DNA of 46,710 bases from an uncultured Syntrophaceae bacterium (GTDB taxonomy: Bacteria > Desulfobacterota > Syntrophia > Syntrophales > UBA2192), in contig CAYSDD010000002.1 of the NCBI GenBank assembly GCA_964429555.1, forward strand, positions 1 to 46,710. The letters are read 5' to 3'. Position 1 is the first letter of the stretch. Every line of letters starts with the position of its first letter. Of this stretch, positions 16,914 to 43,473 are shown piece by piece. The notes below the pieces were generated by a model. That model worked only from the letters and a program-made list of their open reading frames with translations, was not told the origin of the DNA and searched no databases. The position numbers were made by a program, and so were the translations under genes.

Positions 16914-17600
16914 TCAGTCCCCGCGGGGCCGGCGGCCGCGGTGGTCCTCGTCCTGGATGGCCTGGAACTCACGGTCTGCGATCTCCAGGAGGCCCGCCAG
17001 GGCCGCCAGGCGGCGCCGCGTGGAGGCCGGCATGGCCCGCACGGACTTGTACTGGATGTCGTGCTCGATCTCGGCCCAGGCGTGCTGCAGGATCGTCCGG
17101 ACCTGGATCTCGGCGACGAGCCCCCGGAAGCCCTCCCGGTCGGGCCGGTCGGTCTCCTCCGGCGGCAGCTCCACCAGGTAGTGCACGCTCTGATACCCGA
17201 ACCGCCCGGAGGCCTGGAGCGTCTCCGACTTGTTGTCCCTCTCGAGCACGAAGAACCGCTCCCGGATGACGGCATCGATCTCGGACACGGTCCGGGGAAA
17301 GAACGTGATGACCCGCACGCCGGCCAGGTCCGTCACCCACCGCAGGGGGTCCTCGACGGCCATCGAGGTCCTCTTCGCGGCCAGAATCCGAAGGATCTTC
17401 CTCTCCACGTTCTCCGGCGTCTTGGCCCGCGCCTCGATGGAGTGAATCCGGATGGAACGCTGCGCAATGCGCTCCAGGAGATCCTGGCGGATGATTCGGC
17501 AGAACGCCTCGTAGGCGGGCCGCAGCGACGCATAGCGCTGCAGGGCCCCGGAGAGGCGGGTTTCGGCCATCCCCGCGTGCATGCTCTTCAGGCTCCTCAT
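16914..17600 (-). CDS. Small RelA/SpoT-domain protein (small alarmone synthetase-like nucleotide pyrophosphokinase)
   Basis: DLAGVRVITFF, GYQSVHYLV and EIQVRTILQHAWAEIEHD synthetase motifs. ATG 17600 overlaps the ATPase stop as ATGA. No hydrolase (HD) domain. Confidence 0.8.
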   Translation of the reverse strand: MRSLKSMHAGMAETRLSGALQRYASLRPAYEAFCRIIRQDLLERIAQRSIRIHSIEARAKTPENVERKILRILAAKRTSMAVEDPLRWVTDLAGVRVITFFPRTVSEIDAVIRERFFVLERDNKSETLQASGRFGYQSVHYLVELPPEETDRPDREGFRGLVAEIQVRTILQHAWAEIEHDIQYKSVRAMPASTRRRLAALAGLLEIADREFQAIQDEDHRGRRPRGD

Positions 17601-20362: not shown

Positions 20363-20596
20363 CTTCTCCTCGGGGGCAGACGGCTTGCGGATACGGGGTT
20401 GCCGGTCTCGAACGACGGGCCTGGACGCGTCGGGGATTCCCCGGTAGCGGATGCCGGGGTCACGGGGGGCGGCAGAGAGCCCGGGCCCGGATACATGTCA
20501 GGCCGCAATCCGACGTCCGTCTGATGGCGGCCCGACCATCGGCAGATCACCTCCGGAATCGCGCTTCCGGACCCGTTTCCGTTCACTCGTTTCGAC

Positions 20597-28712: not shown

Positions 28713-29300
28713 TCAGAGGTTGATCACCCGGCCCGACGTCATGAGGGCCGTGACGATCTCGTGCATGTTGGAGACCTTGCCGACCCGGAGCTTCTCCTTG
28801 ATGCCGAAGAAGGCCAGGCAGGTGCCGCAGGAGAGGATCTCGACTCCCTCCCTGTCCAGGAGCGCCAGGCTCTCGAGGACGTCGGAACCCTCGGTGGTGA
28901 GAAAGACCCCTCCGTTGATGAAGATCACCTTGTCCGGTCTCGGCTGGGAATCCCAGAGCGTGTTGAGAAAGGCCTTCATGAGGATCGCGCCCAATTCGTC
29001 GGAGCCCTTGCCGAAGACGTCGGTCGTGATGCAGACCACGGTCGGTCCCTCCGCGGCTCCGGCCTGCGCCGCGAGGCTGCAGCCCGCCTGCTTCGTGATG
29101 GTGAGGGCATAGGCGCCCTCCTTCTCCGCCACCGTGACCTCGCAGCCCCGGCTGGCCGCAAACCGCTTCACGTTCTCCCGGCTCTCGGGGCTGTCGACGA
29201 GGACCGTCACGGTCCCTTCGGGAATGGCCTCCAGGGCTTTCTTGGTGTTGATCACGGGCTGCGGGCAGGCAAGCCCCCGGCAATCGATTTCCCTCGTCAT
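28713..29300 (-). CDS. yedF: Sulfurtransferase-like selenium metabolism protein YedF (TusA-like N-domain plus DsrE-like C-domain)
   Basis: MTREIDCRGLACPQPV... preceded by AAAGGAGGA with a 9-nt spacer. C-terminal LSCGTCL...VSNM typical of YedF. Confidence 0.85.
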   Translation of the reverse strand: MTREIDCRGLACPQPVINTKKALEAIPEGTVTVLVDSPESRENVKRFAASRGCEVTVAEKEGAYALTITKQAGCSLAAQAGAAEGPTVVCITTDVFGKGSDELGAILMKAFLNTLWDSQPRPDKVIFINGGVFLTTEGSDVLESLALLDREGVEILSCGTCLAFFGIKEKLRVGKVSNMHEIVTALMTSGRVINL

Positions 29301-29436
29301 GGCGATGATCCTCCTTTCCCCGTCATGGACGGTCGCATTTTCCATAATCCCCTTTCATAAATCAAATGGATTCGTGGCATGTCAGCCTGCTGCGGCCCTC
29401 CCGCGGCAGGCGGGCCCACTTATAACGATTATCTAT

Positions 29437-29465
29437 TTGACAGATAGCCATTGTTTATGTATGGA
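29437..29465 (+). promoter_or_regulatory. Candidate promoter for the activase operon, overlapping an ATC-N9-GAT dyad
   Basis: TTGACA (29437-29442), 17-nt spacer, TATGGA (29460-29465). The dyad ATCTATTTGACAGAT (29431-29445) fits the LysR T-N11-A pattern. Confidence 0.45.
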
Positions 29466-29528
29466 ACCGGATCGAGTTCGGGCGGCGCGGGCCCGGGAAT
29501 GCTCCCGCCTCGGGAGGGTGAACAGGCG

Positions 29529-30275
29529 ATGAAGGGGATCGGGCTGGACATCGGTTCACGGACCATCAAGCTCGTCGTCTGCGAAAACGGCAGCATGACG
29601 ATGAAGCGCAAAGAGGTGAACACCTACGACCCCCTCACCCTGTGCCGGGAGATGCTGAATGGCTTTGAGGCAGAGCGTATCATCGCGACGGGCTACGGGC
29701 GCCATCTGCTCAAAGGATATCTCCAGTGCGAAACGATCAGTGAGATCAAGGCCTTCGCACTGGGAGCCCTTGCCCTCTGCGGCTCCTGCCGGACGGTCCT
29801 GGACATCGGCGGCCAGGACACGAAGGCCATCTCCCTGGACGAAAACGGGAGAATCCTCAAATTCCAGATGAACGACAAGTGCGCCGCCGGGACCGGGCGC
29901 TTCCTCGAGGTCATGGCCACGGCGCTCGGGCTTTCCCTGGAGGATTTCATGGCGGCGGCGGCCGCCGCCGAAGAACCCGAGTCGGTCAGCAGCATGTGCG
30001 CGGTCTTCGCCGAGTCGGAGGTGATCTCCATGATCGCCCGCGGTGCGCCGCGGCCGGGGATCGCACGGGGAATCCACCAATCCGTCGCCCGGCGGGCCGT
30101 GTCCCTGCTCGAGAAGGTATCGATTCGCGAGGACATCCTGTTTGCCGGCGGCGTCGCGCTGAACCCCTGCATGCGCGCGCAGATCGAGGAGCATCTCGGC
30201 CGGCGCGTCATGGTGCCCGGTGACCCGCAGATCGTGGGCGCTCTGGGGTGCGCGCTGATGGCCTCGGAGGCATGA
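29529..30275 (+). CDS. BadF/BadG/BcrA/BcrD-type ATPase: (R)-2-hydroxyacyl-CoA dehydratase-type activase
   Basis: MKGIGLDIGSRTIKLVV, LDIGGQDTKAI, NDKCAAGTGRFLE, MCAVFAESEVIS, FAGGVALNP. Confidence 0.9.
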   Translation: MKGIGLDIGSRTIKLVVCENGSMTMKRKEVNTYDPLTLCREMLNGFEAERIIATGYGRHLLKGYLQCETISEIKAFALGALALCGSCRTVLDIGGQDTKAISLDENGRILKFQMNDKCAAGTGRFLEVMATALGLSLEDFMAAAAAAEEPESVSSMCAVFAESEVISMIARGAPRPGIARGIHQSVARRAVSLLEKVSIREDILFAGGVALNPCMRAQIEEHLGRRVMVPGDPQIVGALGCALMASEA

Positions 30276-30281
30276 AGCAGC

Positions 30282-31490
30282 ATGGCTAATCAGCACTCGG
30301 CACACGAGAAACAGCGGATCCCGTCGGGCCCCGCGAGTTCGCAGGCGGAACCCCTCCTGTGTGACGGCTTCCACGCCGACCCCGCCGGACGCATCCTCAG
30401 CTGCATCCTGTCGAAGCGGGAACAGGGTTCACCCGTCATCGGCCTGTACTGCGGGTACGCCCCTCTGGAGCTGGTCCGGGCCATGGGCGCCGTGCCCGCC
30501 TTCCTCTGCGCCGCCTCGGGCCGGACGATCCCCGCCGCCGAGGCGGTCCTTCCCGCCAATCTCTGCCCGCTGATCAAGTCGAGTTTCGGGTTCATCCGGA
30601 CGAAATCGTGCCCCCTCTACGAGCTTGCCGACGCCGTCATCGGCGAGACGACCTGCGACGGGAAGAAAAAGATGTTCGAGCTGATCGCCCCGCTCAAGCC
30701 GACCCACGTCATGGATCTTCCCTACAGGCCCGATGAGGAAGGGACCCTCGCACGCTGGACGCAGATGGTCCGCAAGCTCAAGAGATTCCTCGAGGAAACC
30801 TTCGCTCGTGCGATCCCGGAGGAACGGATCGAGGCCGAGATCCGGGAAACGAACGCGAAATGCCGGCTCATCGACCGCGTCTTCGATTACGCCGCCCTGG
30901 CGCGGCCGGCCATCCACTGGAGCGAACTGCTCGATGTGATCGGGTTCGAGCCCCTCACCGGCTGCGAGGAATTCCGCCGGTTCGTGGAGCCCGCGCTGGA
31001 ACGGCTCGAGGCCCGCGCCGTTCGCGGCATCGGTTTCGGGCGGCCCGGCGCGCCGCGCGTTCTGGTCAGCGGCTGCCCGATCGGGGGGGAAGCGAAAAAG
31101 GTCCTGCGCCTCATCGAAGAGGCGGGGGGCGTCGTCGTCGCCATGGAGGGATGCAGCGGCATGAAGGGATATTCCATCCGAATCGACGAGGGGACCGGCG
31201 ACCCGCTCGGGGCCGTGGCCGCGGCAACCCTGAAGATCCCCTGCTCCTGCATGACGCCCAACCGGGGGCGGTTCGACGCCCTCGACGAGATGATCGCCCG
31301 GTACCGGCCGGATGCCGTCATCGACGTCATTCTTCAGGCCTGCCACACCTACAACATCGAGTCCCACCGGATCGGGCGGCACATCCGCGACCGGCACGGG
31401 CTGCCCTTTCTGAAAGTCGAGACGGACTATTCCGAATCCGACATCGAGCCGCTGCGCACCCGCATCGAGGCCCTGCTCGAGAGCTGCTGA
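30282..31490 (+). CDS. 2-hydroxyacyl-CoA dehydratase / BcrB-superfamily protein, single-subunit (double-cubane-cluster reductase-like)
   Basis: 402 aa. GLYCGYAPLELVRAMGAVP, CPLIKSSFG, ETTCDGKKKMFE, SGCPIGG, ACHTYN. Only one large subunit is paired with the activase. Confidence 0.8.
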   Translation: MANQHSAHEKQRIPSGPASSQAEPLLCDGFHADPAGRILSCILSKREQGSPVIGLYCGYAPLELVRAMGAVPAFLCAASGRTIPAAEAVLPANLCPLIKSSFGFIRTKSCPLYELADAVIGETTCDGKKKMFELIAPLKPTHVMDLPYRPDEEGTLARWTQMVRKLKRFLEETFARAIPEERIEAEIRETNAKCRLIDRVFDYAALARPAIHWSELLDVIGFEPLTGCEEFRRFVEPALERLEARAVRGIGFGRPGAPRVLVSGCPIGGEAKKVLRLIEEAGGVVVAMEGCSGMKGYSIRIDEGTGDPLGAVAAATLKIPCSCMTPNRGRFDALDEMIARYRPDAVIDVILQACHTYNIESHRIGRHIRDRHGLPFLKVETDYSESDIEPLRTRIEALLESC

Positions 31491-31511
31491 GCGCCCTGTG
31501 CTTCCGAAGGC

Positions 31512-31811
31512 TCAGTCGAGGGCCGTCACTTCGCCCGGAGGGAATCCCCCCTTCTCGAGCCTCTCCCGGATCGTTTCGATGCTCGTCCTTTTGTCGTCGA
31601 AGGTGACCGTCGCCTCTCGGGTGAAGGCGTTGACGTCATGCTTCACCACGCCCGGGGTCGTCCGGAGGATGAAGTTGACCTGCGGCACCGTGGAGGGGCA
31701 GTCGCAGGCCTCGATCTTGAGCCGGATGGTCTTTTCGGCCGCAGAGGCGTCCGGCGCCGCGGCGAGGGCCGTGAGTGCGAGCAGGACGGTGAGAACGTGC
31801 AGCGTCTTCAT
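31512..31811 (-). CDS. Secreted HMA (heavy-metal-associated)-like domain protein with CxC in place of CxxC
   Basis: 99 aa. Signal peptide MKTLHVLTVLLALTALAAAPDASA. IRLKIEACDCPSTVPQV...GVVKHDV...ATVTFD. ATGA overlap with the upstream gene. Confidence 0.65.
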   Translation of the reverse strand: MKTLHVLTVLLALTALAAAPDASAAEKTIRLKIEACDCPSTVPQVNFILRTTPGVVKHDVNAFTREATVTFDDKRTSIETIRERLEKGGFPPGEVTALD

Positions 31812-32173
31812 CGCGGACCTCCCGTTGATTCCGATTGCTCCGCAGAACAGTCGCGGATGAAACGAGCCAGTTCCTCTTCGTTCAACCCCGCCCCGCGCCT
31901 GCCGTCCAGGCGCCGGGCGACGGCACCCTTGCGAAAGAACAGCACGGTCGGAAAGATCTCGATCGCCCAGGGGTCCGACAGCGTGTCCCCGTCGTCCTGC
32001 ACGAGAGCGAACCGCCCCGGGTCCCGTGCGTGATTCTCGAACACGGGCAGGAACCTGCGGCTGTAGGGGCACCAGGAGGCGTAGAACAGGGCGAACAGCT
32101 CGTCTCGGGAGCGCAGGAGCGCCTCGAGATCCGGCGCGCTCGTAACCCGGGGGATTTGGGATGTTTCTTCCAT
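31808..32173 (-). CDS. Thioredoxin-fold protein with monothiol WCPYS motif
   Basis: SD AAAGGAG 8 nt before ATG 32173. LFALFYASWCPYSRRFLPVF...IFPTVLFF. Confidence 0.7.
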   Translation of the reverse strand: MEETSQIPRVTSAPDLEALLRSRDELFALFYASWCPYSRRFLPVFENHARDPGRFALVQDDGDTLSDPWAIEIFPTVLFFRKGAVARRLDGRRGAGLNEEELARFIRDCSAEQSESTGGPR

Positions 32174-32236
32174 CACGCGTTCTCCTTTCCTGGGCTGTCG
32201 AGCCCGTTCGTCCGGGGCCCGCGACGGGGGTCGGCA

Positions 32237-33457
32237 TCACCCCTGAGCGATTCCCAGCACGTCCCGGCAGAGGATCTGCAGGTCACGAAGCTCGGCCCGC
32301 TGCCGGGGCTCGAGTCGCTTGGGTACCCCGGCGGCCCCGAGGGACCGGTTGATTCGCCGGGCCGCGGCGAAGAGGTGCGCGAGGGCCTCCGGGATGTTGA
32401 AATCCCGATGCATCGCCTCGCGGAACCGCACCCCGAGTTCGGTCGTGGCCCCCGCAACCCGGGCTTCTCCTTCCCCGTCCGCCCCGCAGCGCCCGGCAAG
32501 GCCGGAGAGCCGATCGAGGGCCGCGGCCGCCTCCCCGAGCCGCCGCTCCGTCAAGTCCACGGGTCGACGGTAATGCGTCGAGAGGAGGAACAGCCGGATC
32601 GCCCCCGGCCGATGATGCCGGAGCAGGTCGCGGATCCGTCCGCCCCGGTCCTCGGATTTTGAAAGCTTCCTCCCCTTGAGCGTCACCAGTTCGTGATGGA
32701 GCCAGTACCGGGCGAGGTCCGTCCCGTCGAGGCTGCGCGAAAGGGCCCTCTCGTTTTCATGATGGGGAAAGATCAGGTCCCGGCCTCCGCCGTGGATATC
32801 GAACAGGCTGCCCAGGTGCCCGCGGCTCATGGCAACGCATTCGATGTGCCACCCCGGCCGGCCTCTCCCCCAGGGGCTCTCCCAGGCGACCGCATCCCCT
32901 TCGGCCCTCTTCCAGAGGGCGAAGTCCCGCCCGTCCTCCTTGGGGCCGCCCGGTCCCGACCGCAGCCCCGCATCGACGCCCGCGGCGTCCGCGAGGCGAC
33001 CGTAGTCGCCCCGCAGGCGGACCCGGAAGTAGACGCCGTCCTCGCGCACGTAGGCCTGCCCGTCGTCGATGAGCCTCGCGATCGCCTCGAGGATCGGCCC
33101 GATCCGTTCCGTCACGCGCGGCTCGAAATCGGGTGCGAGGACCCCGAGGGCGGCCATGTCCTCCCGGTACGAGCGGATGTAGCGGTCGGCGAGATCCCCG
33201 GCTGCGATCCGCTCGGTTCCCGCCCGTGCGAGGATCTTGTCGTCGAGATCCGTGAAGTTCCGCACGTACCGGACGGCATACCCCTCGAACCGCAGGAAGC
33301 GGACGACCACATCGAAAAAGACCGCCGACCGGGCGTGGCCGACGTGGGCGTGGTCATAGACCGTGGGCCCGCAGACGTAGATTCCGATATGCCCCGGCCG
33401 GATCGGGACAAACGGCTCGAGCGACCCCGTCAGGGTGTTCCAGAGACGCAGCGGCAC
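32237..33457 (-). CDS. cysS: Cysteine--tRNA ligase family protein lacking the C-terminal anticodon-binding module (406 aa)
   Basis: [17 protein letters not shown] (HIGH), [23 protein letters not shown] (Zn ligands), KLSKS. Ends about 50 aa after [12 protein letters not shown], where E. coli CysRS continues for roughly 60 more residues. GTG start 4 nt after the selB stop, with GAGGGAG as SD. Confidence 0.85.
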
Positions 33458-33461
33458 CGCC

Positions 33462-35390
33462 CTACTCCCTCAGCACGCGCTCGTTGCCGCGGCGCTCGGT
33501 GAACCCGATCGCGTCGAGATGCTCGAGAAGGGGCAGGCCGATCGTGCGGCCGCACCCGAGGACCGGGTTGCAGTCCGCGGGCGTGAAGCGACCCTGTTTT
33601 GCAATCCAGGCGCGGATGCGGTCCTTGGCCGTTTCCAGGCCCCGCCGCGAAATGTAGCGCTCGCCGCCCAGCATCACGACGTGTCTCTTCGAGACCAGGT
33701 GTCCGAGGAGGCGCCTGACCTTCGGCTTCTCGTCCGGGAGACCCAGGGCCGCGCTGATCACGGCGACCGTGACGGTGACGGTGCCCGCGCGCTCGACCGC
33801 CTCGAGCACGCGCGCGAGCAGGGGATCCCGAAGGGATCCCAATCTCCGGTGCATCTCCGAAAGAGCATACCCTCCGTTGACGGACGCCAGGACCCCCTCG
33901 CGGACCAGCTCCCCGAGCAGGAAATCCAGGGCCCCGGGCTCCAGGTTCCAGGGGATCGATGCGGCGATGTGCGACTTGCTGATCTGATCGCGCAGGGTGT
34001 CCTCGGCAAGCGTCCGTTCGACGGCCTCCGCGATCTTGCGCTTGGCCTCCTGCGCGGTTTCCGCCGAAAGGAAGGAGCCGGCGTCGAGGGGAACGAGGAA
34101 CCCCGCCTCGCTCTGCCTTTTCAGCACGTTCTCGAAGACGGCGCGATCCAGTCCCGTGGATCGGCTCAGCCCCTCCGCGGTCAGTACGGCGGCGGGCTGC
34201 GCGGCGGCGGCGGCCTTCACGATCCGCCCCGGATCGCCCGTTTGCAGCCCGGTCAAGTAGGCAAGGGTCCTCTCCGCACGCGCCCGCCGGAACTTGACCC
34301 TCGTTGTCTCGAGGATCGTGCCGCCGCCGAGCACGGAAGGGCTGTTCATGGGCGTCATGATGCATCGATCCCGGGGAGCCGCACCGAGCGGTGCCGTGAG
34401 CCGGAATTGCACCAATCCCCTCTGCCCGGGGACGAGTTCCTCCCGGCCCATGATCACCGCCAGAGCCGACCCGACTGCACTGCCGACGTGCACCTTGACC
34501 CTCTGGCCGCTGCGGAGGGGCTGCCCGGAAAGGCGGCACAGCTCCAGCTCGACATTCAGGTAGGCGGCCGCCTCGAGGCACCCCGGCTCCGAGAGGACCA
34601 TTCCCCGGGCGATTTCCCCCGCCCCGACCCCCTGCAGGTTGATCCCGACCCGAAGGCCGGCGGAGGCGGACTCCACGGCGTTGTGATGGGACTCCAGAGA
34701 CCGCACGCGGACCGTCTTCCCGCCCGGGACGATCTCGAGCCGGTCTCCCGCCCGCACGGTGCCCGACAGGATCGTCCCGCTCACCACGGTGCCCAGGCCC
34801 TGGAAGATTCGAACCTGGTCGACGAACATCCGGAAGGGTTTCGAGGAGGCCTTGCTCCGGATCCCCGCCGCGGCCATCCCGTCCAGGACCGCCAGGACTT
34901 CATCCCGGCCCCGCCCGTCGATGCCGGAAAACGGGATGACCGGCCCGTTTTCGAGGAACGACCCCGCCGCGAGTTCCTCGATGTCCAGGGCGGCCATTTC
35001 CAGGGTCTCCCGGTCGACCAGGTCGGCCTTTGTCAGCACGGCGAAGCCGGCCGTGACGCCGAAGAAGCGCAGGATCTCCAGGTGCTCCCGCGTCTGGGGC
35101 ATGACCCCGTCGTCGGCCGCCACCGCCAGGATCGCCGCATCGACGGCGCTCAGCCCCCGGATGGTGTTCTTCATGAAATCCCGGTGGCCGGGCACGTCGA
35201 CCAGGCTGACCCGCAGGCCCGACGGCAGCACGAGCGGGGCGATGCCGAACTCGATGGAGAGGCCCCGGGCCTTTTCGACCTGCATCCGGTCCGTGTCGAC
35301 GCCCGTCAGGGCGGCGACCAGCGTCGTCTTGCCGTGGTCGACATGCCCGGCGATGCCGACCGTGTAATGTCTCTGCATGATTGCGCCCAT
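33462..35390 (-). CDS. selB: Selenocysteine-specific elongation factor SelB family
   Basis: 642 aa. GHVDHGKTTL, DVPGHRDF, TKADL. C-terminal winged-helix region ...LLEHLDAIGFTERRGNERVL matches the E. coli SelB C-terminus. The domain II pocket motif reads FVDQVRIF instead of AIDRAF. Confidence 0.85.
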   Translation of the reverse strand: MGAIMQRHYTVGIAGHVDHGKTTLVAALTGVDTDRMQVEKARGLSIEFGIAPLVLPSGLRVSLVDVPGHRDFMKNTIRGLSAVDAAILAVAADDGVMPQTREHLEILRFFGVTAGFAVLTKADLVDRETLEMAALDIEELAAGSFLENGPVIPFSGIDGRGRDEVLAVLDGMAAAGIRSKASSKPFRMFVDQVRIFQGLGTVVSGTILSGTVRAGDRLEIVPGGKTVRVRSLESHHNAVESASAGLRVGINLQGVGAGEIARGMVLSEPGCLEAAAYLNVELELCRLSGQPLRSGQRVKVHVGSAVGSALAVIMGREELVPGQRGLVQFRLTAPLGAAPRDRCIMTPMNSPSVLGGGTILETTRVKFRRARAERTLAYLTGLQTGDPGRIVKAAAAAQPAAVLTAEGLSRSTGLDRAVFENVLKRQSEAGFLVPLDAGSFLSAETAQEAKRKIAEAVERTLAEDTLRDQISKSHIAASIPWNLEPGALDFLLGELVREGVLASVNGGYALSEMHRRLGSLRDPLLARVLEAVERAGTVTVTVAVISAALGLPDEKPKVRRLLGHLVSKRHVVMLGGERYISRRGLETAKDRIRAWIAKQGRFTPADCNPVLGCGRTIGLPLLEHLDAIGFTERRGNERVLRE

Positions 35391-35452
35391 CGACGGTCAG
35401 ATTCCTGCGGCTCTCTCCGGCACGCGGCGCCGGCCGGCCGCTTTGCATGCGA

Positions 35453-35544
35453 TGGAAGGGGCAAGGGGAATCGAACCTCCTCCTCGTTGCTGAGACGAGG
35501 CCAACGGATTTGAAGTCCGCGGGGTGCCCAGCACCATTGCCCCT
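35453..35544 (-). tRNA. selC: tRNASec-like (selC-type) tRNA, anticodon UCA, 8-bp acceptor, 4-bp bulged T stem, long variable arm, discriminator U73, encoded CCA
   Basis: Hand fold of the minus strand: AGGGGCAA UG GGUG-CUGGG-CACC CC GCGGA-CUUCAAA-UCCGU UGG CCUCGU-CUCAGCA-ACGAGG A GG(A)GG-UUCGAUU-CCCC UUGCCCCU U CCA. Anticodon at 35511-35513. Confidence 0.8.
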
Positions 35545-35848
35545 GTCCTGTGCCGTCTTCTCCCCGTCCGTGCCGCGCGTCGATCGGACGCCCCGGGGCG
35601 GCACAGGCGGGGAAGCCGCTGCGTTGCACATCGTTCTTTGCCGGATTCGTCGGGGGGAAGATCCCGTTCGCCTGCCCTTGCCGCAGGCAAACAGGACGAG
35701 GGTCTCATCTTGCAGGCGGGCAAAAGGCGGGCGGCATCAACGCGGGAACCGCACGAGTCCCCGATTGCGTCGATCAGCTCCGTAACAGTCGAATCGGCAT
35801 GTTCGTGACCATCCGGTCTTTCCGTGTCAAGGGTCTTGCGCTCATCCG

Positions 35849-35878
35849 CTATTAACGGGAAACCCTTCGGGCTGTCAA
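35849..35878 (-). promoter_or_regulatory. Candidate sigma70 promoter upstream of the tRNA(UCA)-selB operon
   Basis: Minus strand TTGACA (35878-35873), 18-nt spacer, TAATAG (35854-35849). About 300 nt upstream of the tRNA 5' end. Confidence 0.4.
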
Positions 35879-35999
35879 GTTAAAAATAACTTTTCTACAT
35901 CTCATCTATGCACAGATTGAATGTTGACGGCGGGGTCCCGGTCCGGGGGCCCGCCGCGAAGGGGCGGCGGTCGCACCCCGGCGTTTTCGCGCAGCCGGC

Positions 36000-37394
36000 T
36001 TATTCCGTCCCCCGCAGCGTGTCGAGCAGGAAGGCGCGCAGCCGGCCGTAATCGGCGGGAAGATCCACGGGCTCGCCGGTTCGCTTCTCGAGGTCCCTCA
36101 TGCTCTGCGGTACCTCGGGGGTGATCCCCAGCAGCTCGATGATCTCGTCGGGGAACTTGGCGGGGTGCGCCGTCTCGAGGCACACGCAGGGCTCTGCGAT
36201 GGGCCCGCAGCAGGCCTCCAGGTAGTGCTCGAGGCCCCGCCAGCCCACGGCCCCGTGGGGTTCCAGCAGCACCCGGTGCCGCTCCCAGACGCGCCGGATC
36301 GTTTCCTTCGTTTCCTCGTCGGAGACGCTCACGGAGAAGATGCGCCGGCGCATCTCCGCCAGGTCGGGGTAGGCGTGCACGATGCCCGTTCGGTCCACCG
36401 TGCCCCCGTAGAGCTCGAAGAACCGGGCCAGGTTGCTCGGGTGGCCCACGTTCATGGCGTTGGAGAGGCAGGCCCGCGACGGTGAGACCTTCCGGTAGAC
36501 CCCCGTCCTGAGGTAGCTGGGAAATTCGTCGTTTTCGTTGGTGGGCATGACGAGCATCCGGACGGGAAGCCCCATGCGCCGGGCGTACTCGCAGCCCAGG
36601 GCGTTGCCGAAATTCCCCGAGGGGACGGAGAAGACGATCTCCTCGCCCGGGGCGGCCAGCTGGGCGTAGGCATAGACGTAGTAGATGCTCTGCGGCAGGA
36701 TCCGGCCGAAGTTGATGGAGTTGGCCGAAGTGAGGTTGAGCCCCGCGAGCCCCGGGTCGGCGAAGGCCTGCTTGACGAGGTTCTGGCAGTCGTCGAACTT
36801 GCCGTCCACGGACAGGGCGAGGACGTTGCCGCCGATCGTGTCGAGCTGCTTCTTCTGCATGCCGCTCACTTCGTTTCGCGGGTAGAGGATATAGACGCCG
36901 ATCCCCTCGACGCCCTTGAAGGCCTCGCCCACGGCGCTGCCCGTGTCGCCCGAGGTGGCCACGAGCACATTGAGGCGCCTGCCCGGATCGCGCAGGCGGC
37001 TCATGAGCCTCGCCATCATCCGGGCGGCGAAGTCCTTGAAGGAGGCCGTCGGCCCCCGGTCCAGGCGCATGATGTAAACGCGGTCGTGGACCCGCTCCAG
37101 GGGAACATCGAAGTTGTATGCATCGTCCACGACCTGCCGGATCGCCTCCCGGGGCAGCTCGTCCTTCAGGAACGCCTCGGCCACGAGGAGGGCCGTCTCC
37201 GGGTAGGGCCGCCCCTTGCAGGCCAGCACCTCGCTCACGGCAAGCGTCGGGATCGGCTCGGGCATGAAGAGCCCCTCGTCGGGCGCCTGGCCCCGGATCA
37301 GGGCCTCGCGGAAGGAGACCTGCCCCGTGAACGGCGTGAGGCCGCCCACCCCCTCGAGGCGGCGGTTCGTGCTGTAGTAGAGGATTTTCGTCAT
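36000..37394 (-). CDS. thrC: Threonine synthase (E. coli/yeast-type long form)
   Basis: 464 aa. VSFREALIRGQAPDEGLFMP, PTASFKDFAARMM (PLP Lys), TSGDTGSA, TSANSINFGRILPQ. Confidence 0.85.
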   Translation of the reverse strand: MTKILYYSTNRRLEGVGGLTPFTGQVSFREALIRGQAPDEGLFMPEPIPTLAVSEVLACKGRPYPETALLVAEAFLKDELPREAIRQVVDDAYNFDVPLERVHDRVYIMRLDRGPTASFKDFAARMMARLMSRLRDPGRRLNVLVATSGDTGSAVGEAFKGVEGIGVYILYPRNEVSGMQKKQLDTIGGNVLALSVDGKFDDCQNLVKQAFADPGLAGLNLTSANSINFGRILPQSIYYVYAYAQLAAPGEEIVFSVPSGNFGNALGCEYARRMGLPVRMLVMPTNENDEFPSYLRTGVYRKVSPSRACLSNAMNVGHPSNLARFFELYGGTVDRTGIVHAYPDLAEMRRRIFSVSVSDEETKETIRRVWERHRVLLEPHGAVGWRGLEHYLEACCGPIAEPCVCLETAHPAKFPDEIIELLGITPEVPQSMRDLEKRTGEPVDLPADYGRLRAFLLDTLRGTE

Positions 37395-37398
37395 GCGT

Positions 37399-38334
37399 TT
37401 ACCTCTTTGCGAGCGGTTCCGGGCGGTAGGCCCGGATGAAATCGAGAAAGATCCGGTGGTGCGCCATCAGGTCGAAGTGCCTGCGGTGAATGACGTAAAA
37501 GAAGCGCTCGACGGGGCAGCCCTCGATGGGCAGCGCGGCAAGGATCCCCGAGGCGATCTCCCTCCGGACGGCGTAGATGGAAATCACGGAAAGGCCGACG
37601 CCGGCGATGACGGCCTCCTTGACCGCCTCGGAGCTCCCCATCTCGGCAACGACCCGAAACCGGGACAGGTCCGTTTTGCCGGCCTCGGCAAGGCACCGCT
37701 CGAAGGCGTCGCGGGTGCCCGAGCCCCGCTCGCGGATCACGAAGGGCTCCTTCTCGAGCTCGCGGACACGGACGGTTTTCCTCTTCGCCCAGGGGTGCGC
37801 CGCGGGAACGGCCAGCACCATCCGGTCCCGCCAGAGCGGTTCGGCCGCCAGCTTCGCGCCGGCGGGCTCCTTGCCGATGAAGCCGATCTCGGCGCCGTTC
37901 TCCAGGACCGTCTCGATGACCTCGCTGCTGTCGGCCGCCCGCACGGCGGTCCGGATCGCGGGGAATTTCTCCCGAAACGCAGCGATCGCCGGGGGCAGGA
38001 TGTAGGTGGCCGGGATCGTGCTGGCGGCGATCCGGATGTCCCCCTCCTCGGCGGCGCGCGCCCGCATCACCCGCTCCATGGCCTCCTCGCGCAGCTTCAG
38101 GATCCGCCGGGCGTAGTCGTACACCACGCGCCCCTCGGGCGTCAGCGTGAAGGCGCGGCTCGCGCGGTTGACCACCTTCGCCCCCAGGGCGTCCTCGAGG
38201 TTGCGGATGTGCTTCGTGAGCGACGGCTGGGAGAGGTACATCCTCCTGGCCGCCCGGCTGAAGCTGCGTTCCTCGACGAGGTGCACCAGGGCCTCGAGCT
38301 GCAGCATGTTGACGTTTTTCATCTCGGCCTGCAT
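37399..38334 (-). CDS. LysR-family transcriptional regulator (selenium-cluster associated)
   Basis: 311 aa. HTH LQLEALVHLVEERSFSRAARRMYLSQPSLTKHIRNLE. Divergent from yedE. Its stop is 4 nt before the thrC ATG. Confidence 0.85.
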   Translation of the reverse strand: MQAEMKNVNMLQLEALVHLVEERSFSRAARRMYLSQPSLTKHIRNLEDALGAKVVNRASRAFTLTPEGRVVYDYARRILKLREEAMERVMRARAAEEGDIRIAASTIPATYILPPAIAAFREKFPAIRTAVRAADSSEVIETVLENGAEIGFIGKEPAGAKLAAEPLWRDRMVLAVPAAHPWAKRKTVRVRELEKEPFVIRERGSGTRDAFERCLAEAGKTDLSRFRVVAEMGSSEAVKEAVIAGVGLSVISIYAVRREIASGILAALPIEGCPVERFFYVIHRRHFDLMAHHRIFLDFIRAYRPEPLAKR

Positions 38335-38467
38335 GGCCTGTCCCTACCATGACCCTTTTCGATAATCAAGAAGCATTTATGAATTATTGGAATTGGCGTT
38401 ATTCAGAAAAGAAGGGTAATAAAAAAGCGCTTTCCTCATCCCAGACCCTGTGAAGGAGGACCCCGGT

Positions 38468-39541
38468 ATGGGCAACCCGTTTGCATCCCGCGCGGGAATC
38501 ATCGTCGTCGGCGTTGCCATCGGCATCATGGCAACGCTCCTGCAGTACTTTGGCAACCCCCCGAACATGGGCATCTGCGTGGCCTGCATGGAGCGCGACA
38601 TTGCGGGCGCCCTGGGCCTGCACCGGGCCGCCGTCGTGCAGTATCTTCGCCCCGAGATCATCGGCTTCGTGATCGGGGCCTTCCTCGCCGCCCTGCTCGC
38701 GAAGGAGTACCGGCCCCGCGGGGGGTCGGCGCCGCTCGTGCGCTTCTTTCTCGGCGTCTTCGCCATGATCGGCGCACTGGTGTTCCTGGGCTGCCCCTGG
38801 CGGGCGCTGCTGCGGCTTGCGGGGGGCGACTGGAACGCCCTCACGGGCCTCGCGGGCCTGGCGACGGGCATCGGCGTGGGCGTCGCCTTCCTCAAATCGG
38901 GCTACAGCCTGGGCCGCGCCCAGCCGCAGAAGGCGGCGTCGGGTATCCTCTTCCCCGTCTTCATGGCCGGGCTCTTCCTGCTGCTCGTCTTCCGGGTGAC
39001 CTTCGCCGAGGGCGGCCCCCTCTTTTTCAGCCAGAAGGGTCCGGGGTCGCAGTTCGCCCCCGTCTGGATGAGCCTGGGCGCCGGGGTGCTCGTCGGGGCC
39101 ATCGCCCAGCGCAGCCGGTTCTGCACCATGGGGGCCCTGCGGGACGTCATCCTGCTGAAGGATTTCCACCTCATGAGCGGCGTGGCGGGTCTGCTCGTCG
39201 CCGCCTTTGCCATGAATCTCATCCTGGGGCAGTTCAAGCCCGGTTTTGCAGGCCAGCCGATCGCCCACACGGACCATCTCTGGAATTTCCTGGGGATGGC
39301 GCTCGCGGGCCTGGCCTTCGCGCTGGCCGGCGGCTGCCCGGGCCGCCAGCTGTTCCTCTCCGGCGAGGGGGACCTCGACGCGGGCATCTTCGCCCTGGGC
39401 ATGATCGTCGGGGCCGGCGTGTCGCACAACTTCGCCATGGCCAGCTCGCCCGCCGGCGCCGCCGCCTTCGGGCCGGCCGGCGTCATCGTGGGCTTCGTCT
39501 TCTGCCTGGCCGTGGGGTTCACGATGCGGGAGAAGGCCTGA
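38468..39541 (+). CDS. yedE: YedE-family putative selenium/sulfur-compound transporter
   Basis: GAAGGAGG 8 nt before ATG 38468. GNPPNMGICVACMERDIAGALGLH, FCTMGALRD, about 9 TM segments. Confidence 0.85.
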   Translation: MGNPFASRAGIIVVGVAIGIMATLLQYFGNPPNMGICVACMERDIAGALGLHRAAVVQYLRPEIIGFVIGAFLAALLAKEYRPRGGSAPLVRFFLGVFAMIGALVFLGCPWRALLRLAGGDWNALTGLAGLATGIGVGVAFLKSGYSLGRAQPQKAASGILFPVFMAGLFLLLVFRVTFAEGGPLFFSQKGPGSQFAPVWMSLGAGVLVGAIAQRSRFCTMGALRDVILLKDFHLMSGVAGLLVAAFAMNLILGQFKPGFAGQPIAHTDHLWNFLGMALAGLAFALAGGCPGRQLFLSGEGDLDAGIFALGMIVGAGVSHNFAMASSPAGAAAFGPAGVIVGFVFCLAVGFTMREKA

Positions 39542-39590: not shown

Positions 39591-39803
39591 ATGAGCGCAA
39601 CGCGAATCGATGCCCGGGGCCTTTCCTGCCCCCAGCCCGTCGTCCTGACCAGCAGGGCCATCGAGGGCGGGGCGGAGAGCCTGGAAGTCCTCGTCGACAA
39701 CGAGGTGTCGAAGGAAAACGTGCTTCGCCTGGCGAAGCGGCACAAGATGCAGGCCTCGGTCCGTCCGGAAGGGCCCGATATTGTCATCGAAATCAAAAAG
39801 TAG
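39591..39803 (+). CDS. TusA/SirA-family sulfurtransferase-like protein
   Basis: 70 aa. IDARGLSCPQPVV motif. SD AAAGGAG. Confidence 0.85.
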   Translation: MSATRIDARGLSCPQPVVLTSRAIEGGAESLEVLVDNEVSKENVLRLAKRHKMQASVRPEGPDIVIEIKK

Positions 39804-39864: not shown

Positions 39865-40410
39865 ATGCGGAGATTCATGTTTTTCAAATCCGGCAAAAAG
39901 AACGGTTTCGAGGGCGGCGGGCTCGTCCTGTTCGAAAGCGTGGAAGAGGCCATGAGCGGCGAGCGGGCCCTGAAGGCGGGAGAATTCGAGACCCGTCTCG
40001 TGGCGCCCCCGCCCGAGCTCAGGCGGGGCTGCGATCTCGCCCTGGAGATCAACCTCGTGGAAAAGCCCGCCGTCGAGCGGGCGCTGCAGGAGCGCGAGGT
40101 CCCCTTCCTCGACATCCTGCCCATCCGGGGCGACGCGGAGCTTCTCCAGGTCGTCAAGGTCACCGACTTCGGCGAGGCCCTCATGGTCAAGGCGGGCAAC
40201 ATGAAGCTCACCTTCGACAAGGCCTCGGGCGTCGTCCTGAACATCTCGGGCGGCGGCTGCCCCGACATCCCCTACCTGCACGCCGAGATGCTGGCCAAGC
40301 CGCTGGAGCAGGCGCCGCGGCCCAAGGCCATCGGCCGCACGCTCTGCGCCCTCATGCTGGACCGCGCCTGGGAGCAGTCGCTCGAAATCCGGAAGAACGG
40401 CAACGGGTGA
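39865..40410 (+). CDS. DUF3343 (putative Se/S carrier)-like domain fused to an uncharacterised Cys-containing C-terminal domain
   Basis: N-terminal LVLFESVEEAMSGERALKAGEFETRLVAPPPELRRGCDLAL. C-terminal half has ISGGGCPDIPY and TLCALMLD. Alternative start ATG 39877. Confidence 0.65.
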   Translation: MRRFMFFKSGKKNGFEGGGLVLFESVEEAMSGERALKAGEFETRLVAPPPELRRGCDLALEINLVEKPAVERALQEREVPFLDILPIRGDAELLQVVKVTDFGEALMVKAGNMKLTFDKASGVVLNISGGGCPDIPYLHAEMLAKPLEQAPRPKAIGRTLCALMLDRAWEQSLEIRKNGNG

Positions 40411-40414
40411 GGCC

Positions 40415-41320
40415 ATGCTGCTCGTCTGCGGAACCGCCCCGCTCAAAGAGCTCCCGCTGACCGAGGGGGAGGCGGGGCTCGACGGGGACATCCTGCGCGT
40501 CGGCGGTGCCGGGATCCCCTGCACGCAGGGCACGGCGGCCCTGGTGAGCGCCGCCTGCAAGACGCTGGACTACCTGGGCCAGCCCGCGCCCCGGGTGCTG
40601 CTCGTGGGCGACGACGGCACCGGCAAGGGCAGCCGGCAGCTCTACGAGCGCCTGATCGAGGATCTGCCCCGCCTGGCCCCCCGGGTCGTCGTGCTGCACT
40701 ACATGCTGCCCGTCATGGGGCTCATGCGCAGGGTGAGCGAGTCGGCCTCCAAGGCGCCTCGGCGCCCCTTCATGATCGCCGATGCCGCGGCCATGTACGC
40801 CGCCAAGGCGGCGGGGATCGCCCGCGAGTTCGACCTCTTCACGCCGGACCTCTCGGAGCTGGCCTTCCTGGCGGACCCGCAGGCCACCCACCCGGCCTAC
40901 GTGAGCCGGCACCTCTTCGAGTCGGACAGCACGCGCATCCCCGAGATGGTCGCGGCGGCCTACGCCAACGGGAGCGCCGCCCGGACGCTCGTCGTGAAGG
41001 GCGCCACGGACCACATCGCGCAGGAGGGCAGGATCCTCGACACCCTGTCGGAGCCGGACATCCCGGCCCTCGAGGCCATCGGCGGTACGGGGGACACGAT
41101 CAGCGGCATGGTGGGGGCCCTCGTGCACGCCGGGTACGACGAGGTCACGGCGGCCCGCGTCGCCGTTCGGGCCAACCGCACGGCCGGGCTCTACGCCGGG
41201 GCCACGCCGGCCACGCGGATCCGGCAGGTCATCGAGGCCCTGCCCCGGGTCTTCGCCGATCACCTCGACGGGTGGGTGCGGCAGGCGCAAATCGAAAGAG
41301 CGGAAAGGAGCGCACCGTGA
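40415..41320 (+). CDS. Ribokinase-fold protein, YjeF C-terminal / NAD(P)HX-dehydratase (NnrD)-like
   Basis: 301 aa. LFTPDLSELAFL, LVVKGATDHIA, EAIGGTGDTISGMVGAL resemble NnrD motifs. Its stop overlaps the selD GTG (GTGA). Confidence 0.6.
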   Translation: MLLVCGTAPLKELPLTEGEAGLDGDILRVGGAGIPCTQGTAALVSAACKTLDYLGQPAPRVLLVGDDGTGKGSRQLYERLIEDLPRLAPRVVVLHYMLPVMGLMRRVSESASKAPRRPFMIADAAAMYAAKAAGIAREFDLFTPDLSELAFLADPQATHPAYVSRHLFESDSTRIPEMVAAAYANGSAARTLVVKGATDHIAQEGRILDTLSEPDIPALEAIGGTGDTISGMVGALVHAGYDEVTAARVAVRANRTAGLYAGATPATRIRQVIEALPRVFADHLDGWVRQAQIERAERSAP

Positions 41321-42369
41321 CGACGGAAAAGAAGATCCGCCTGACGGAGATGGTCCACGGGGCCGGCTGAGCGTGCAAGATCGGTCCGGAGGACCTGAGC
41401 CGAGCCCTGGAGGGGCTTCCCATCATCGCGGACCCCAACCTGATCGTCGGCCTCGAGGGCAACGAGGACGCGGGCGTCTACCGTCTGCGCGACGACCTGG
41501 CCATCATCCAGACGGTCGACTTCTTCACGCCCATCGTCGACGACCCCTACACCTTCGGGCAGATCGCCGCGACGAATTCCCTCTCCGACGTCTACGCCAT
41601 GGGCGGCCGGCCGATCACGGCCCTGAACATCATCTGCTTTCCGCCGAAGAAGCTCGACATGTCGGTCCTGCAGGCGATCCTGCGCGGCGGGCTGGACAAG
41701 ATGACGGAGGCGGGCGTCGTGCTCGTCGGGGGCCACAGCGTGGAGGACGACGAGCCGAAATACGGCCTCTCCGTGACGGGCGTCATTCACCCCGACCGGG
41801 TCCTGCGCAACCGCGGGGGCCGGCCCGGAGACAAACTGATCCTGACCAAGGCGCTCGGCACGGGCATCGTCAGCACGGCGATCAAGGGGGAGGAGGCCGA
41901 CCCGGCCCTCGTCGAGAAGGCCGTCCGGGCCATGACGACCCTGAACCGGCAGGCCGCCGAGCTGATGACGCAGATGCCCGTCATCCACGCCTGCACGGAC
42001 GTGACGGGGTTCGGCATGCTGGGGCACGCCTGCGAGATGATCGAGGGAAGCGACGTGGGGTTGACGATCGACGCCGCGGCCGTCCCCTGCTTCGAGGGGG
42101 TGCGGGAACTCGTGGAAAGCGGCTACGTGCCGGGGGGGCTCTACCGCAACAAGAACTTCCGGATGCCGATGATCGACGTCGAGCCGTCGTGCCCGGAGTG
42201 GCTGCTGGAGATCCTCTTCGACCCCCAGACCGCGGGCGGCCTGCTCATCGCCCTGCCGGCGGGGGACGCGGAAACGCTTGTCCGGCGCATGCGCGAGGCC
42301 GGGATCGGGGATGCGGCCGTGGTGGGCGAAGTGGTCGCCGCGCCGAAGGGGAAGATCATCGTCCGGTGA
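41317..42369 (+). CDS. selD: Selenide, water dikinase (selenophosphate synthetase) with in-frame UGA = selenocysteine at 41368-41370
   Basis: GTG 41317 after GGAAAGGAG. Translation VTTEKKIRLTEMVHGAG-U-ACKIGPEDL... aligns with E. coli ...[21 protein letters not shown] (UGA at the Cys17 position). Same frame as track ORF 41599..42369. 350 codons. Confidence 0.9.
41381..41398 (+). promoter_or_regulatory. Candidate SECIS hairpin 10 nt downstream of the selD UGA
   Basis: UC-GGUCC-GGA-GGACC-(U)-GA: 7 bp with a bulged U and a small apical loop. Hand fold only. Confidence 0.35.
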
Positions 42370-42381
42370 TGCCCTGAACGG

Positions 42382-42864
42382 TCAATCCCCCTGCCTGAGC
42401 TTCTGGGCCTCCTGCAGCAGCTCGTACTGGCGCTGGCGGTTCTCCCTCGTCGCGGGCATGGGCTCGCGGGCCTGCGCCTCCAGCCGCTCCGCTTCCCGGA
42501 GCCGTCTCTGTCTCTCCTGTTCCCGTTGCGCGTCGCGTGTCTCGACGGTTTTGACCACCTCGTCGAGCTGCCGGTCCCTCTGCCGGATGGCCTCCTCGGC
42601 CGTCACGGCACCGGGAGGGGGCTGCGGCCCCGCCTGTTCCGCGGCGGCTGCCGCAGGCGCGGCGGCCGGTTTCCCCGAGACGACGGGCTCGGCCCTCACC
42701 CCTTTCGGGGGCCTGTCCGTGAGCACGACGGTCCCGTCCCTGTCGGTGTACTTGTAGATGGTCTGCGCATCGGCCGGCGCTTGCACGAGGCTGCTCAACA
42801 GGGAGATGCAAAGCAGCCCCTGGAGCAGCCGACAAACTCTCAACGCGGACCTCTCACCCGTCAC
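42382..42864 (-). CDS. DUF4124-domain secreted protein with charged coiled-coil tail
   Basis: QTIYKYTDRDGTVVLTDRPP motif after a signal peptide. The start could be TTG 42843 (MRVCRLLQGLLC...). Confidence 0.7.
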   Translation of the reverse strand: MTGERSALRVCRLLQGLLCISLLSSLVQAPADAQTIYKYTDRDGTVVLTDRPPKGVRAEPVVSGKPAAAPAAAAAEQAGPQPPPGAVTAEEAIRQRDRQLDEVVKTVETRDAQREQERQRRLREAERLEAQAREPMPATRENRQRQYELLQEAQKLRQGD

Positions 42865-42930: not shown

Positions 42931-43473
42931 CTATTGCATCTGCCTGAGCCTCTCGGCCTCCTCCATCAGCTTGCGCTGCCGGTTGATGTTCTCCTGGGTC
43001 GGGACGATCGGCTTTTGGGCCTCCCGTTCGAGCCGGTCGGCCTCCTCGAGGCGGCGCTGCCTTTCCTGCTGCCTCTCCTGCAGCTTTCGCTGCACCTCCT
43101 CCCTCTGCTTTTGGATCTCCTCGTCGGCGGCCTTTCGCATCTCCGCATCGCGTGCCCCTTCGGGCGGGGCGGCCTGGTCACGGACCCCGGGCCTCGGCAT
43201 GGGGGCGGCCTGGTCCCGGCTTCCCGGCACCGGCATCGGTGCTGCGCCCTGCGCCTCGGGGACGGGCCTCGTGGTCCTCTCGGAAGGGGCGAGGTCCGAT
43301 TCGTCGAGGATCTCACCCCGCACCCCCGGGGGCGGGTTGTCGGTGATGACGATCCTGCCGTCCTTGTCGGTATAGCGATAGAGCTGCGCCGGGGTGTCAC
43401 AAGGCGTCAACAGGATCACGGCCCATGCCGATACGAGGAGGGCAGCCAACAGTCTCGCGGGGTGCTTGCTCAT
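42931..43473 (-). CDS. DUF4124-domain secreted protein (tandem paralogue)
   Basis: 180 aa. Signal peptide, LYRYTDKDGRIVITDNPPPG, E/R/Q-rich C-terminus similar to 42382..42864. Confidence 0.7.
   Translation of the reverse strand: MSKHPARLLAALLVSAWAVILLTPCDTPAQLYRYTDKDGRIVITDNPPPGVRGEILDESDLAPSERTTRPVPEAQGAAPMPVPGSRDQAAPMPRPGVRDQAAPPEGARDAEMRKAADEEIQKQREEVQRKLQERQQERQRRLEEADRLEREAQKPIVPTQENINRQRKLMEEAERLRQMQ

Follow-up and report, generated by a model that had tools for sequence, protein, structure and literature searches.

The window analysed here, a 46.7-kb stretch (46,710 nucleotides) of a contig from an uncultured Syntrophaceae bacterium (CAYSDD010000002.1), very probably carries selD as an intact selenoprotein-type gene, in which an in-frame UGA at codon 18 would be read as selenocysteine (Sec) through a hairpin resembling a bacterial Sec insertion sequence (SECIS). 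Directly observed were homology to SelD 5′ as well as 3′ of the UGA, a UGA conserved among relatives, and RNA-level constraint together with covariation in the hairpin. The elements of the gene were the following:

41302–41310, + strand: Shine-Dalgarno-like GGAAAGGAG, 6 nt before the GTG start, from direct sequence reading.
41317–42369, + strand: selD (selenide, water dikinase), from TIGR00476, PRK00943 and the alignment with E. coli SelD (3u0o).
41368–41370, + strand: in-frame UGA, codon 18, the predicted Sec codon, from the 3u0o alignment and a TGA in 80/80 relatives and in the metagenome contig L081.
41381–41398, + strand: SECIS-like hairpin, from RNAfold, synonymous-site constraint and stem covariation.

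Starting with the GTG at 41317, the gene had 350 codons plus the stop. Its translation read VTTEKKIRLTEMVHGAG, then the UGA (codon 18, 41368–41370), then ACKIGPEDLS..., and the frame stayed open past the UGA until the TGA at 42367–42369. The initial annotation had stated that the list of open reading frames (ORFs) misses the true gene, and that the frame runs without interruption into a listed ORF. Both statements were borne out: in the selD frame the list gave only 41599–42369, and the 5′ part was missed. The GTG start shared the sequence GTGA with the stop codon of the preceding ORF (40415–41320), an overlap suggesting that translation of selD is coupled to that gene.

Scored with Cys substituted at the UGA (350 aa), the product reached 402.9 bits with the TIGR00476 model, whose cut-off is 125, and 362.5 bits with PRK00943, whose cut-off is 299, its residues 3–349 matching model positions 2–344 of 347. 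E. coli SelD (3u0o) aligned with an E-value of 9e-78, residues 2–344 being collinear with residues 3–349 of the product. SelD sequence thus also makes up the 17 codons 5′ of the UGA, and the collinearity first noted around the UGA holds. Codon 18 corresponded to the catalytic Cys17 of E. coli, as had been proposed, and the following A-C-K to G18-C19-K20 (C20 = Cys19, K21 = Lys20).

To look at relatives, we scanned one genome per species and retained the 80 closest selD loci. The closest (L001), in a Syntrophobacterales metagenome-assembled genome (MAG), encoded a SelD 97% identical to that of the window. Next came 37 Syntrophales/Syntrophaceae MAGs (L002–L037 and L049) with 65–87% identity and, beyond the Syntrophales clade, loci from Clostridia and Desulfomonilales with 51–57% identity. 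The aligned codon was TGA in all 80 loci, whether from Syntrophales, Desulfomonilales or Clostridia, and also in L081. The peptide 5′ of the UGA was kept (RLTE.VHGAG). In the residues around the UGA, the Syntrophales-clade proteins had G-U-A-C-K, retaining the equivalent of Cys19, where E. coli has C-G-C-K. The clostridial and Desulfomonile-type Sec-SelDs had mostly G-U-A-A-K, with the second Cys absent. One Desulfomonilaceae MAG (JBKQRG01) carried two selD genes on separate contigs (L062 and L063), each with a TGA Sec codon.

These alignments bear on the explanation that the TGA stems from faulty sequencing or from an inactivating mutation, with a product starting at the ATG at 41599 or with a pseudogene as the result. 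The ORF list, with its single entry 41599–42369, would agree with it. However, all 80 closest selD loci, from independent assemblies, have TGA at this codon and L081 shares it, which rules out a sequencing error. The coding sequence 5′ of the TGA is conserved, RNA-level constraint is found directly after the codon, and a product starting at 41599 would be without the N-terminal loop bearing the Cys17 and Lys20 equivalents. We regard this explanation as refuted by the conserved upstream peptide, the universal TGA and the synonymous-site constraint, and give it practically no credence.

The short hairpin with a bulged U, said in the initial annotation to begin 10 nt after the UGA, was recovered both by RNAfold and by comparative pairing. 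RNAfold of 41368–41405 gave the pairs U14-A31 and C15-G30, a bulged U29, and a GGUCC/GGACC stem closed by a GGA loop. The conserved core (41383–41395) was GGUC-CGGAG-GACC, with U41381-A41398 and C41382-G41397 as outer pairs and U41396 bulged. By the rule implemented in bSECISearch, a bacterial SECIS folds as a stem-loop shortly 3′ of the UGA, and its apical loop carries a conserved G about 16–37 nt from that codon. The loop G's of our hairpin lie 20–21 nt after the U of the UGA, a distance that fits the expected range.

Synonymous-site constraint was assessed on 38 Syntrophales-clade sequences, over about 100 conserved four-fold-degenerate codons along selD. Third-base entropy was zero at two codons only, Gly23 (GGU, 38/38) and Pro24 (CCG, 38/38), which make up the 5′ arm and the loop of the hairpin. 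Leu27 ranked third lowest, after Ser141; typical sites had 1.0–1.8 bits. Elsewhere in selD, Gly codons ending in U were a minority in the same sequences.

Covariation in the stem pointed in the same direction. Among 81 sequences, the pairs 16-28 and 17-27 were nearly always G-C or G-U, C19 and C20 were invariant, and the loop G22 was present in 80. In the 73 distinct sequences, the compensatory pair 18-26 was U-A in 50, G-C in 11 and A-U in 2. The stem cells were paired in 83.1% of cases, versus 26–52% with the 3′ arm slid, and the 14 double-sided stem changes were matched by 0/500 shuffles. The outer part of the stem occurred in two forms: sequences with C15 had the pair C15-G30 in 21/22, with U29 bulged, and those with A15 had the pair A15-U29 in 46/46. 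This manual covariation check came out in favour of the element, and together with the synonymous-site constraint it makes a role of hairpin 41381–41398 as a bacterial SECIS well supported.

In the mechanism that we propose, translation would start at the GTG at 41317, probably coupled to the upstream gene. The UGA at codon 18 would not be read as a stop, the hairpin acting as a bacterial SECIS that would recruit a SelB-type elongation factor with an aminoacylated tRNA(UCA). Selenocysteine would be inserted at the position equivalent to E. coli Cys17, and the SelD product would make selenophosphate from selenide and ATP. The neighbouring selC*/SelB*/CysRS* genes, described below, could deliver Cys to the same codon, as a secondary and conditional route and not as the main one.

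Several points weigh against reading the UGA as Sec through a SECIS. The folding energy of the hairpin was no better than that of shuffled sequences (z = +1.08, −0.10 and −1.13) in this GC-rich sequence and, with z-scores within the shuffled range, was dropped as SECIS evidence. Rfam scans at gathering and permissive thresholds returned no SECIS family match, just a chance D12-methyl match; Rfam holds no model that would fit the selD hairpin. It was because folding energy and Rfam gave no support that the comparative tests were used. The Sec identity at codon 18 is a prediction from sequence. In the 46.7-kb window there was no selA, canonical selB or G73-type tRNASec, and the sole tRNA(UCA) had cysteine identity. 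We infer Sec as the inserted residue, and likewise a canonical selA/selB/selC set elsewhere in the genome.

The tRNA(UCA) belongs to a cassette on the 5′ side of selD, which together with its neighbours comprised:

35453–35544, − strand: selC*-type tRNACys(UCA), the only tRNA in the window, with features fitting the published type (PMC5389517).
33462–35390, − strand: putative SelB paralogue (SelB*), full length, with a C-terminal winged-helix SECIS-binding domain (TIGR00475, 289 bits; PF09107).
32237–33457, − strand: CysRS*, 406 aa, with no anticodon-binding domain (TIGR00435, 396.6 bits, positions 1–377 of 466).
31512–31808, − strand: HMA/MerP-like protein, small and secreted, bearing a C-D-C motif and encoded right after cysS*, from a domain search.
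29451–31490, + strand: activase, with 29526 as its best-supported start, and a double-cubane-cluster anaerobic reductase (NF040772, 426.1 bits, cut-off 350; TIGR00241, 220.8 bits).

The tRNA had an 8-bp acceptor stem, A1:U72, U73, an encoded CCA, a long variable arm and a 4-bp T-stem plus an unpaired A. SelB*, the sole selB in the window, aligned to residues 3–607 of the 614 of E. coli SelB and was ~30% identical to the clostridial SelBs of selD-linked operons. The last Pfam domain of CysRS* was DALR_2 (residues 344–403), and the protein ended after this helical bundle. Against NF041115, the model for a ‘UxxU metal-binding (seleno)protein’, the HMA-like protein scored weakly (27.6 bits, under the cut-off of 95), and a protein of this kind again followed cysS* on the P0007 contig. 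According to Mukai et al. (2017), cysS* always accompanies A1:U72 and UCA (PMC5389517). All three occurred together in the window and in L081, L082 and L084; L063 had G1:C72 and GCA, and was without CysRS*. Judged from its sequence, the cassette is the published selC*/tRNAReC-SelB*-CysRS* system, matching it in the tRNA, in the SelB-like gene that follows and in the truncated CysRS. The name tRNAReC was given to the selC* tRNACys system later, as described in PMC13582414 and PMC11415595.

Two further features of the cassette were considered and set aside. The aminoacyl pocket of SelB* was tried as a diagnostic: residues D180/R181/R236 of E. coli are D/Q/R here, but the solved SelB of A. aeolicus has D/S at the first two, and the pocket therefore does not discriminate. 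The G + C content at third codon positions (GC3) was 0.855–0.885 in the cassette genes and mostly 0.92–0.95 in the thrC-to-selD neighbours. A horizontal origin based on GC3 was rejected, the other genes of the window spanning 0.71–0.97.

Since a Cys-type cassette accounts for both the single tRNA(UCA) and the single SelB-like factor of the window, UGA18 might be read as Cys only. The Sec machinery would then have been lost, the selC*/SelB*/CysRS* genes would be the sole decoder, and SelD would effectively be a Cys enzyme for selenouridine or Se-cofactor synthesis; mnmA and other tRNA-modification genes are found nearby. However, every selC*-containing genome examined by Mukai et al. had a complete selABCD set (PMC5389517), and no more than 46.7 kb of the genome lies in the window. 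Moreover, in close relatives without a cassette at selD, purifying constraint clearly maintains the UGA and the SECIS, and this implies that the clade has a canonical decoder. We thus consider a Cys-only decoding highly improbable, and retain Sec as the predicted residue.

Both selD and the cassette lie in a selenium locus, in which we recognized the following additional genes:

28713–29345, − strand: yedF, full length, adjoining thrC in L006 and L017 (TIGR03527, 235 bits, cut-off 110).
36000–37394: thrC.
37399–38334, − strand: selenium-metabolism-associated LysR regulator, divergent from yedE (NF040786, 289.6 bits, cut-off 250).
38450–39541, + strand: yedE, putative selenium transporter, the first gene of the apparent operon (TIGR04112, 497.6 bits, cut-off 200).
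39591–39803, + strand: TusA/SirA-like small sulfur/selenium-transfer protein, 70 aa (PF01206, 57.7 bits).
39865–40410, + strand: Se/S-carrier-like protein of the DUF3343 family (PF11823, 56.4 bits).
40415–41320, + strand: Carb_kinase/YjeF-C-terminal-like protein, whose stop overlaps the selD start (PF01256, 35.8 bits).

An apparent operon of yedE, the TusA-like gene, the DUF3343 gene and the carb_kinase-like gene probably ends with selD. Lin et al. 2015 (PMC5322559) reported such a selD neighbourhood. The match of the TusA/SirA-like protein to the YedF model extended over the model's N-terminal 62 positions.

Compared with L001, L004, L006 and L017, a block of ~6.6 kb (29346–35999) was inserted between yedF and thrC. 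It contained the activase, the double-cubane reductase, the HMA-like protein, cysS*, selB* and selC*. In L006 and L017 yedF directly adjoins thrC, hence the insertion is placed in this genome. In L001, L004 and L006, thrC abuts sequence corresponding to about 28200, 12200 or 29300 of the window. Around the block we saw no integrase or clear flanking repeats. Two near-identical motifs, ATCTATTTGACAGAT (29431–29445) and ATCTATGCACAGAT (35904–35917), both on the + strand, were found in the window only at the edges of the block. They resemble the ATC-N9-GAT boxes of LysR regulators, and the pattern ATCTAT-N(2-6)-CAGAT was derived from both sites. Their interpretation as a LysR box or flanking repeat is doubtful: the pattern had five matches among the other 163 loci, none of the five in a cassette-bearing locus.

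We had expected conserved synteny between selD and the cassette, and this was rejected. No tRNA(UCA) was found in the flanks of 38/38 Syntrophales-clade selD loci, including L001 with its 97% identical SelD. The sister metagenome contig L081 also had its cassette placed between yedF and thrC, and carried selD (91%), yedE, the LysR gene, thrC, selC*, SelB* (81%) and CysRS* (75%). In the Desulfomonilaceae locus L063, a GCA-type selC* and a SelB paralogue lay 4–6 kb from a Sec-type selD, which was flanked by yedE, a double-cubane reductase/activase pair and these two genes. No selD was within reach of the cassettes in L084, L161, the P0007 contig, L162 and L163. The tally was three of eight cassettes near selD, in two independent lineages, and five of eight away from it. 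A metagenome scan with CysRS* returned 80 loci, of which three carried the cassette (L081, L082 and L084), plus one 100%-identical fragment (L083). The link of the cassette to selenium metabolism is clear. A specific link to selD is not clear; it is recurrent but not obligatory.

The double-cubane reductase (NF040772) recurred beside selD, LysR_Se or selC* in unrelated lineages: at 29451–31490 (+) in the window, 7933–9918 in L063, 11634–13571 in L067 and L071, and 6656–7741 in L084. The activase accompanied it in all these loci but L084, where there was no activase match. A statistical association of the double-cubane family with SelD was reported before (bioRxiv 10.1101/2022.07.06.499078). 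The physical linkage of the reductase to a tRNAReC cassette may be new.

The initial annotation had also taken the neighbouring tRNA(UCA) system as putatively Cys-inserting and as a means to bootstrap SelD in a Cys form when selenium is scarce. The first part stood, through the Cys identity of the tRNA (U73, A1:U72), the SelB paralogue and the truncated CysRS; the bootstrap role gained no such support, the adjacency not being conserved. Spelled out, CysRS* would charge the adjacent selC* tRNACys(UCA), SelB* would bring it to the selD SECIS, and Cys would be inserted at UGA18 when selenium, and with it Sec-tRNASec, is scarce. The resulting Cys-SelD would restart selenophosphate synthesis, and decoding would be dual and conditional, with Sec or Cys. 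Such a route is possible, though in our view rather unlikely.

The published definition of the system (A1:U72, U73, UCA, 8-bp acceptor stem, SelB paralogue, truncated CysRS) fits the cassette, and SelB* retains the winged-helix domain for SECIS binding. Mukai et al. 2017 used as reporter the UGA-containing selD of Desulfomonile tiedjei, with the UGA at codon 15 (PMC5389517). A selC* tRNACys(UCA), with an engineered mimic of CysRS*, suppressed this UGA with Cys and gave a functional SelD in E. coli (PMC5389517). The position inside the selenium locus, 5.8 kb from selD both here and in L081, and the GCA-type selC* and SelB* at 4–6 kb from selD in the distant L063, also speak for it. Yet the adjacency is not conserved, with 38 Syntrophales-clade selD loci having no cassette nearby and five of eight cassettes lying away from selD. 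The selD SECIS core is identical whether the locus bears the cassette (L081) or not (L001), and the candidate motif shared by the cassette edges is not conserved elsewhere. Syntrophales have many selenoprotein genes, 19 in Syntrophus aciditrophicus (PMC1794560), and a back-up with Cys would therefore apply broadly rather than to SelD in particular. The natural function of the selC* system was called “still uncharted” (PMC5389517), and a 2026 paper still describes the partition between tRNASec and tRNAReC as “unclear” (PMC13582414). Overall, the bootstrap proposal seems plausible and compatible with the published heterologous experiment, but it is not SelD-specific and is novel only in part; we hold it tentatively.

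A broader proposal, which we consider speculative and unlikely, treats the six-gene block (selC*-selB*-cysS*-HMA plus reductase/activase) as an insertable module, placed within the selenium locus beside LysR_Se here and in L081 and acting as a selenium-status switch. Once Sec-tRNASec is exhausted, the selD UGA and other SECIS-linked UGAs could be read as Cys, and selenophosphate synthesis could be primed without pre-existing SelD.

The rest of the window is housekeeping, without canonical selA, selB or selC. On the 3′ side of selD there were two tandem paralogous ORFs (42382–42864 and 42931–43473, − strand) of 160 and 180 aa. They share an N-terminal signal-like segment and the motif Y.YTD.DG..V.TD.PP, and the first (42382–42864) had no NCBIfam match. 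An Rfam nhaA-I RNA was found at 20522–20574 (− strand; 44.1 bits, gathering threshold 37), just upstream of a P-type cation ATPase (17597–20362, − strand).

In annotation terms, the gene should be recorded as a selenoprotein of 350 codons and not as a 256-aa fragment, and the annotation of the 80 related loci needs the same change. Sec-SelD with a UGA and a SECIS has long been known in anaerobic bacteria, and this locus adds another example. Among bacterial selenoproteins, Sec-SelD is one of the two found most often, and a 2006 listing includes it for S. aciditrophicus (PMC1794560). Of the SelD genes of prokaryotes, about 19% encode Sec; its position never varies, and such genes are usually misannotated (PMC4561486). 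Cys suppression of a selD UGA by a selC* tRNA is already published (PMC5389517), which leaves the bootstrap idea only partly new. A Sec-type SelD requires its own product for its synthesis, and therefore a genome with a Cys-for-Sec cassette in its selenium locus is a convenient natural system, which could serve to ask what tRNAReC, SelB* and CysRS* are for.

Compared with the Sec-SelDs of other anaerobes (S. aciditrophicus, D. tiedjei), the gene has the same UGA position, the same N-terminal glycine-rich loop and the SECIS directly 3′ within the coding sequence. There is no essential difference, apart from U-A-C-K in the Syntrophales clade versus U-A-A-K in Clostridia and Desulfomonile. Gene callers routinely truncate Sec-SelD genes, as happened here (PMC1794560, PMC4561486, PMC5389517). 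E. coli SelD (3u0o) shares the HGAG-x-x-CK loop and is collinear over residues 2–344, but has a Cys codon (UGY) for position 17 and requires neither a SECIS nor recoding.

With the published selC*/SelB*/CysRS* system (PMC5389517), the cassette shares the tRNASec-like 8/4 fold, U73, A1:U72 with UCA, a SelB-like gene directly downstream and a cysS* lacking the anticodon-binding domain. The published cysS* type comes from a subgroup of Desulfobacterales (PMC5389517), whereas ours is in a Syntrophales-like genome. Unlike the published system, the cassette here sits in the selenium locus, with yedF and thrC on its two sides, and a gene for a small HMA-like protein comes after it. The altered CP1 motif that reads the first base pair, PTVS in the CysRS* of D. 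biacutus, was not apparent by eye in the translation, where the equivalent stretch is D-A-G-L-R-S.

Methanococcus switches between Sec and Cys isoenzymes in response to selenium, under the LysR_Se orthologue HrsM, as summarised in PMC5322559. There, too, a back-up for selenium scarcity is linked to a regulator of the LysR_Se family, the same logic as in the bootstrap hypothesis. Methanococcus uses separate Cys-encoding genes, however, whereas the hypothesis for our locus would involve a changed reading of one codon in one gene.

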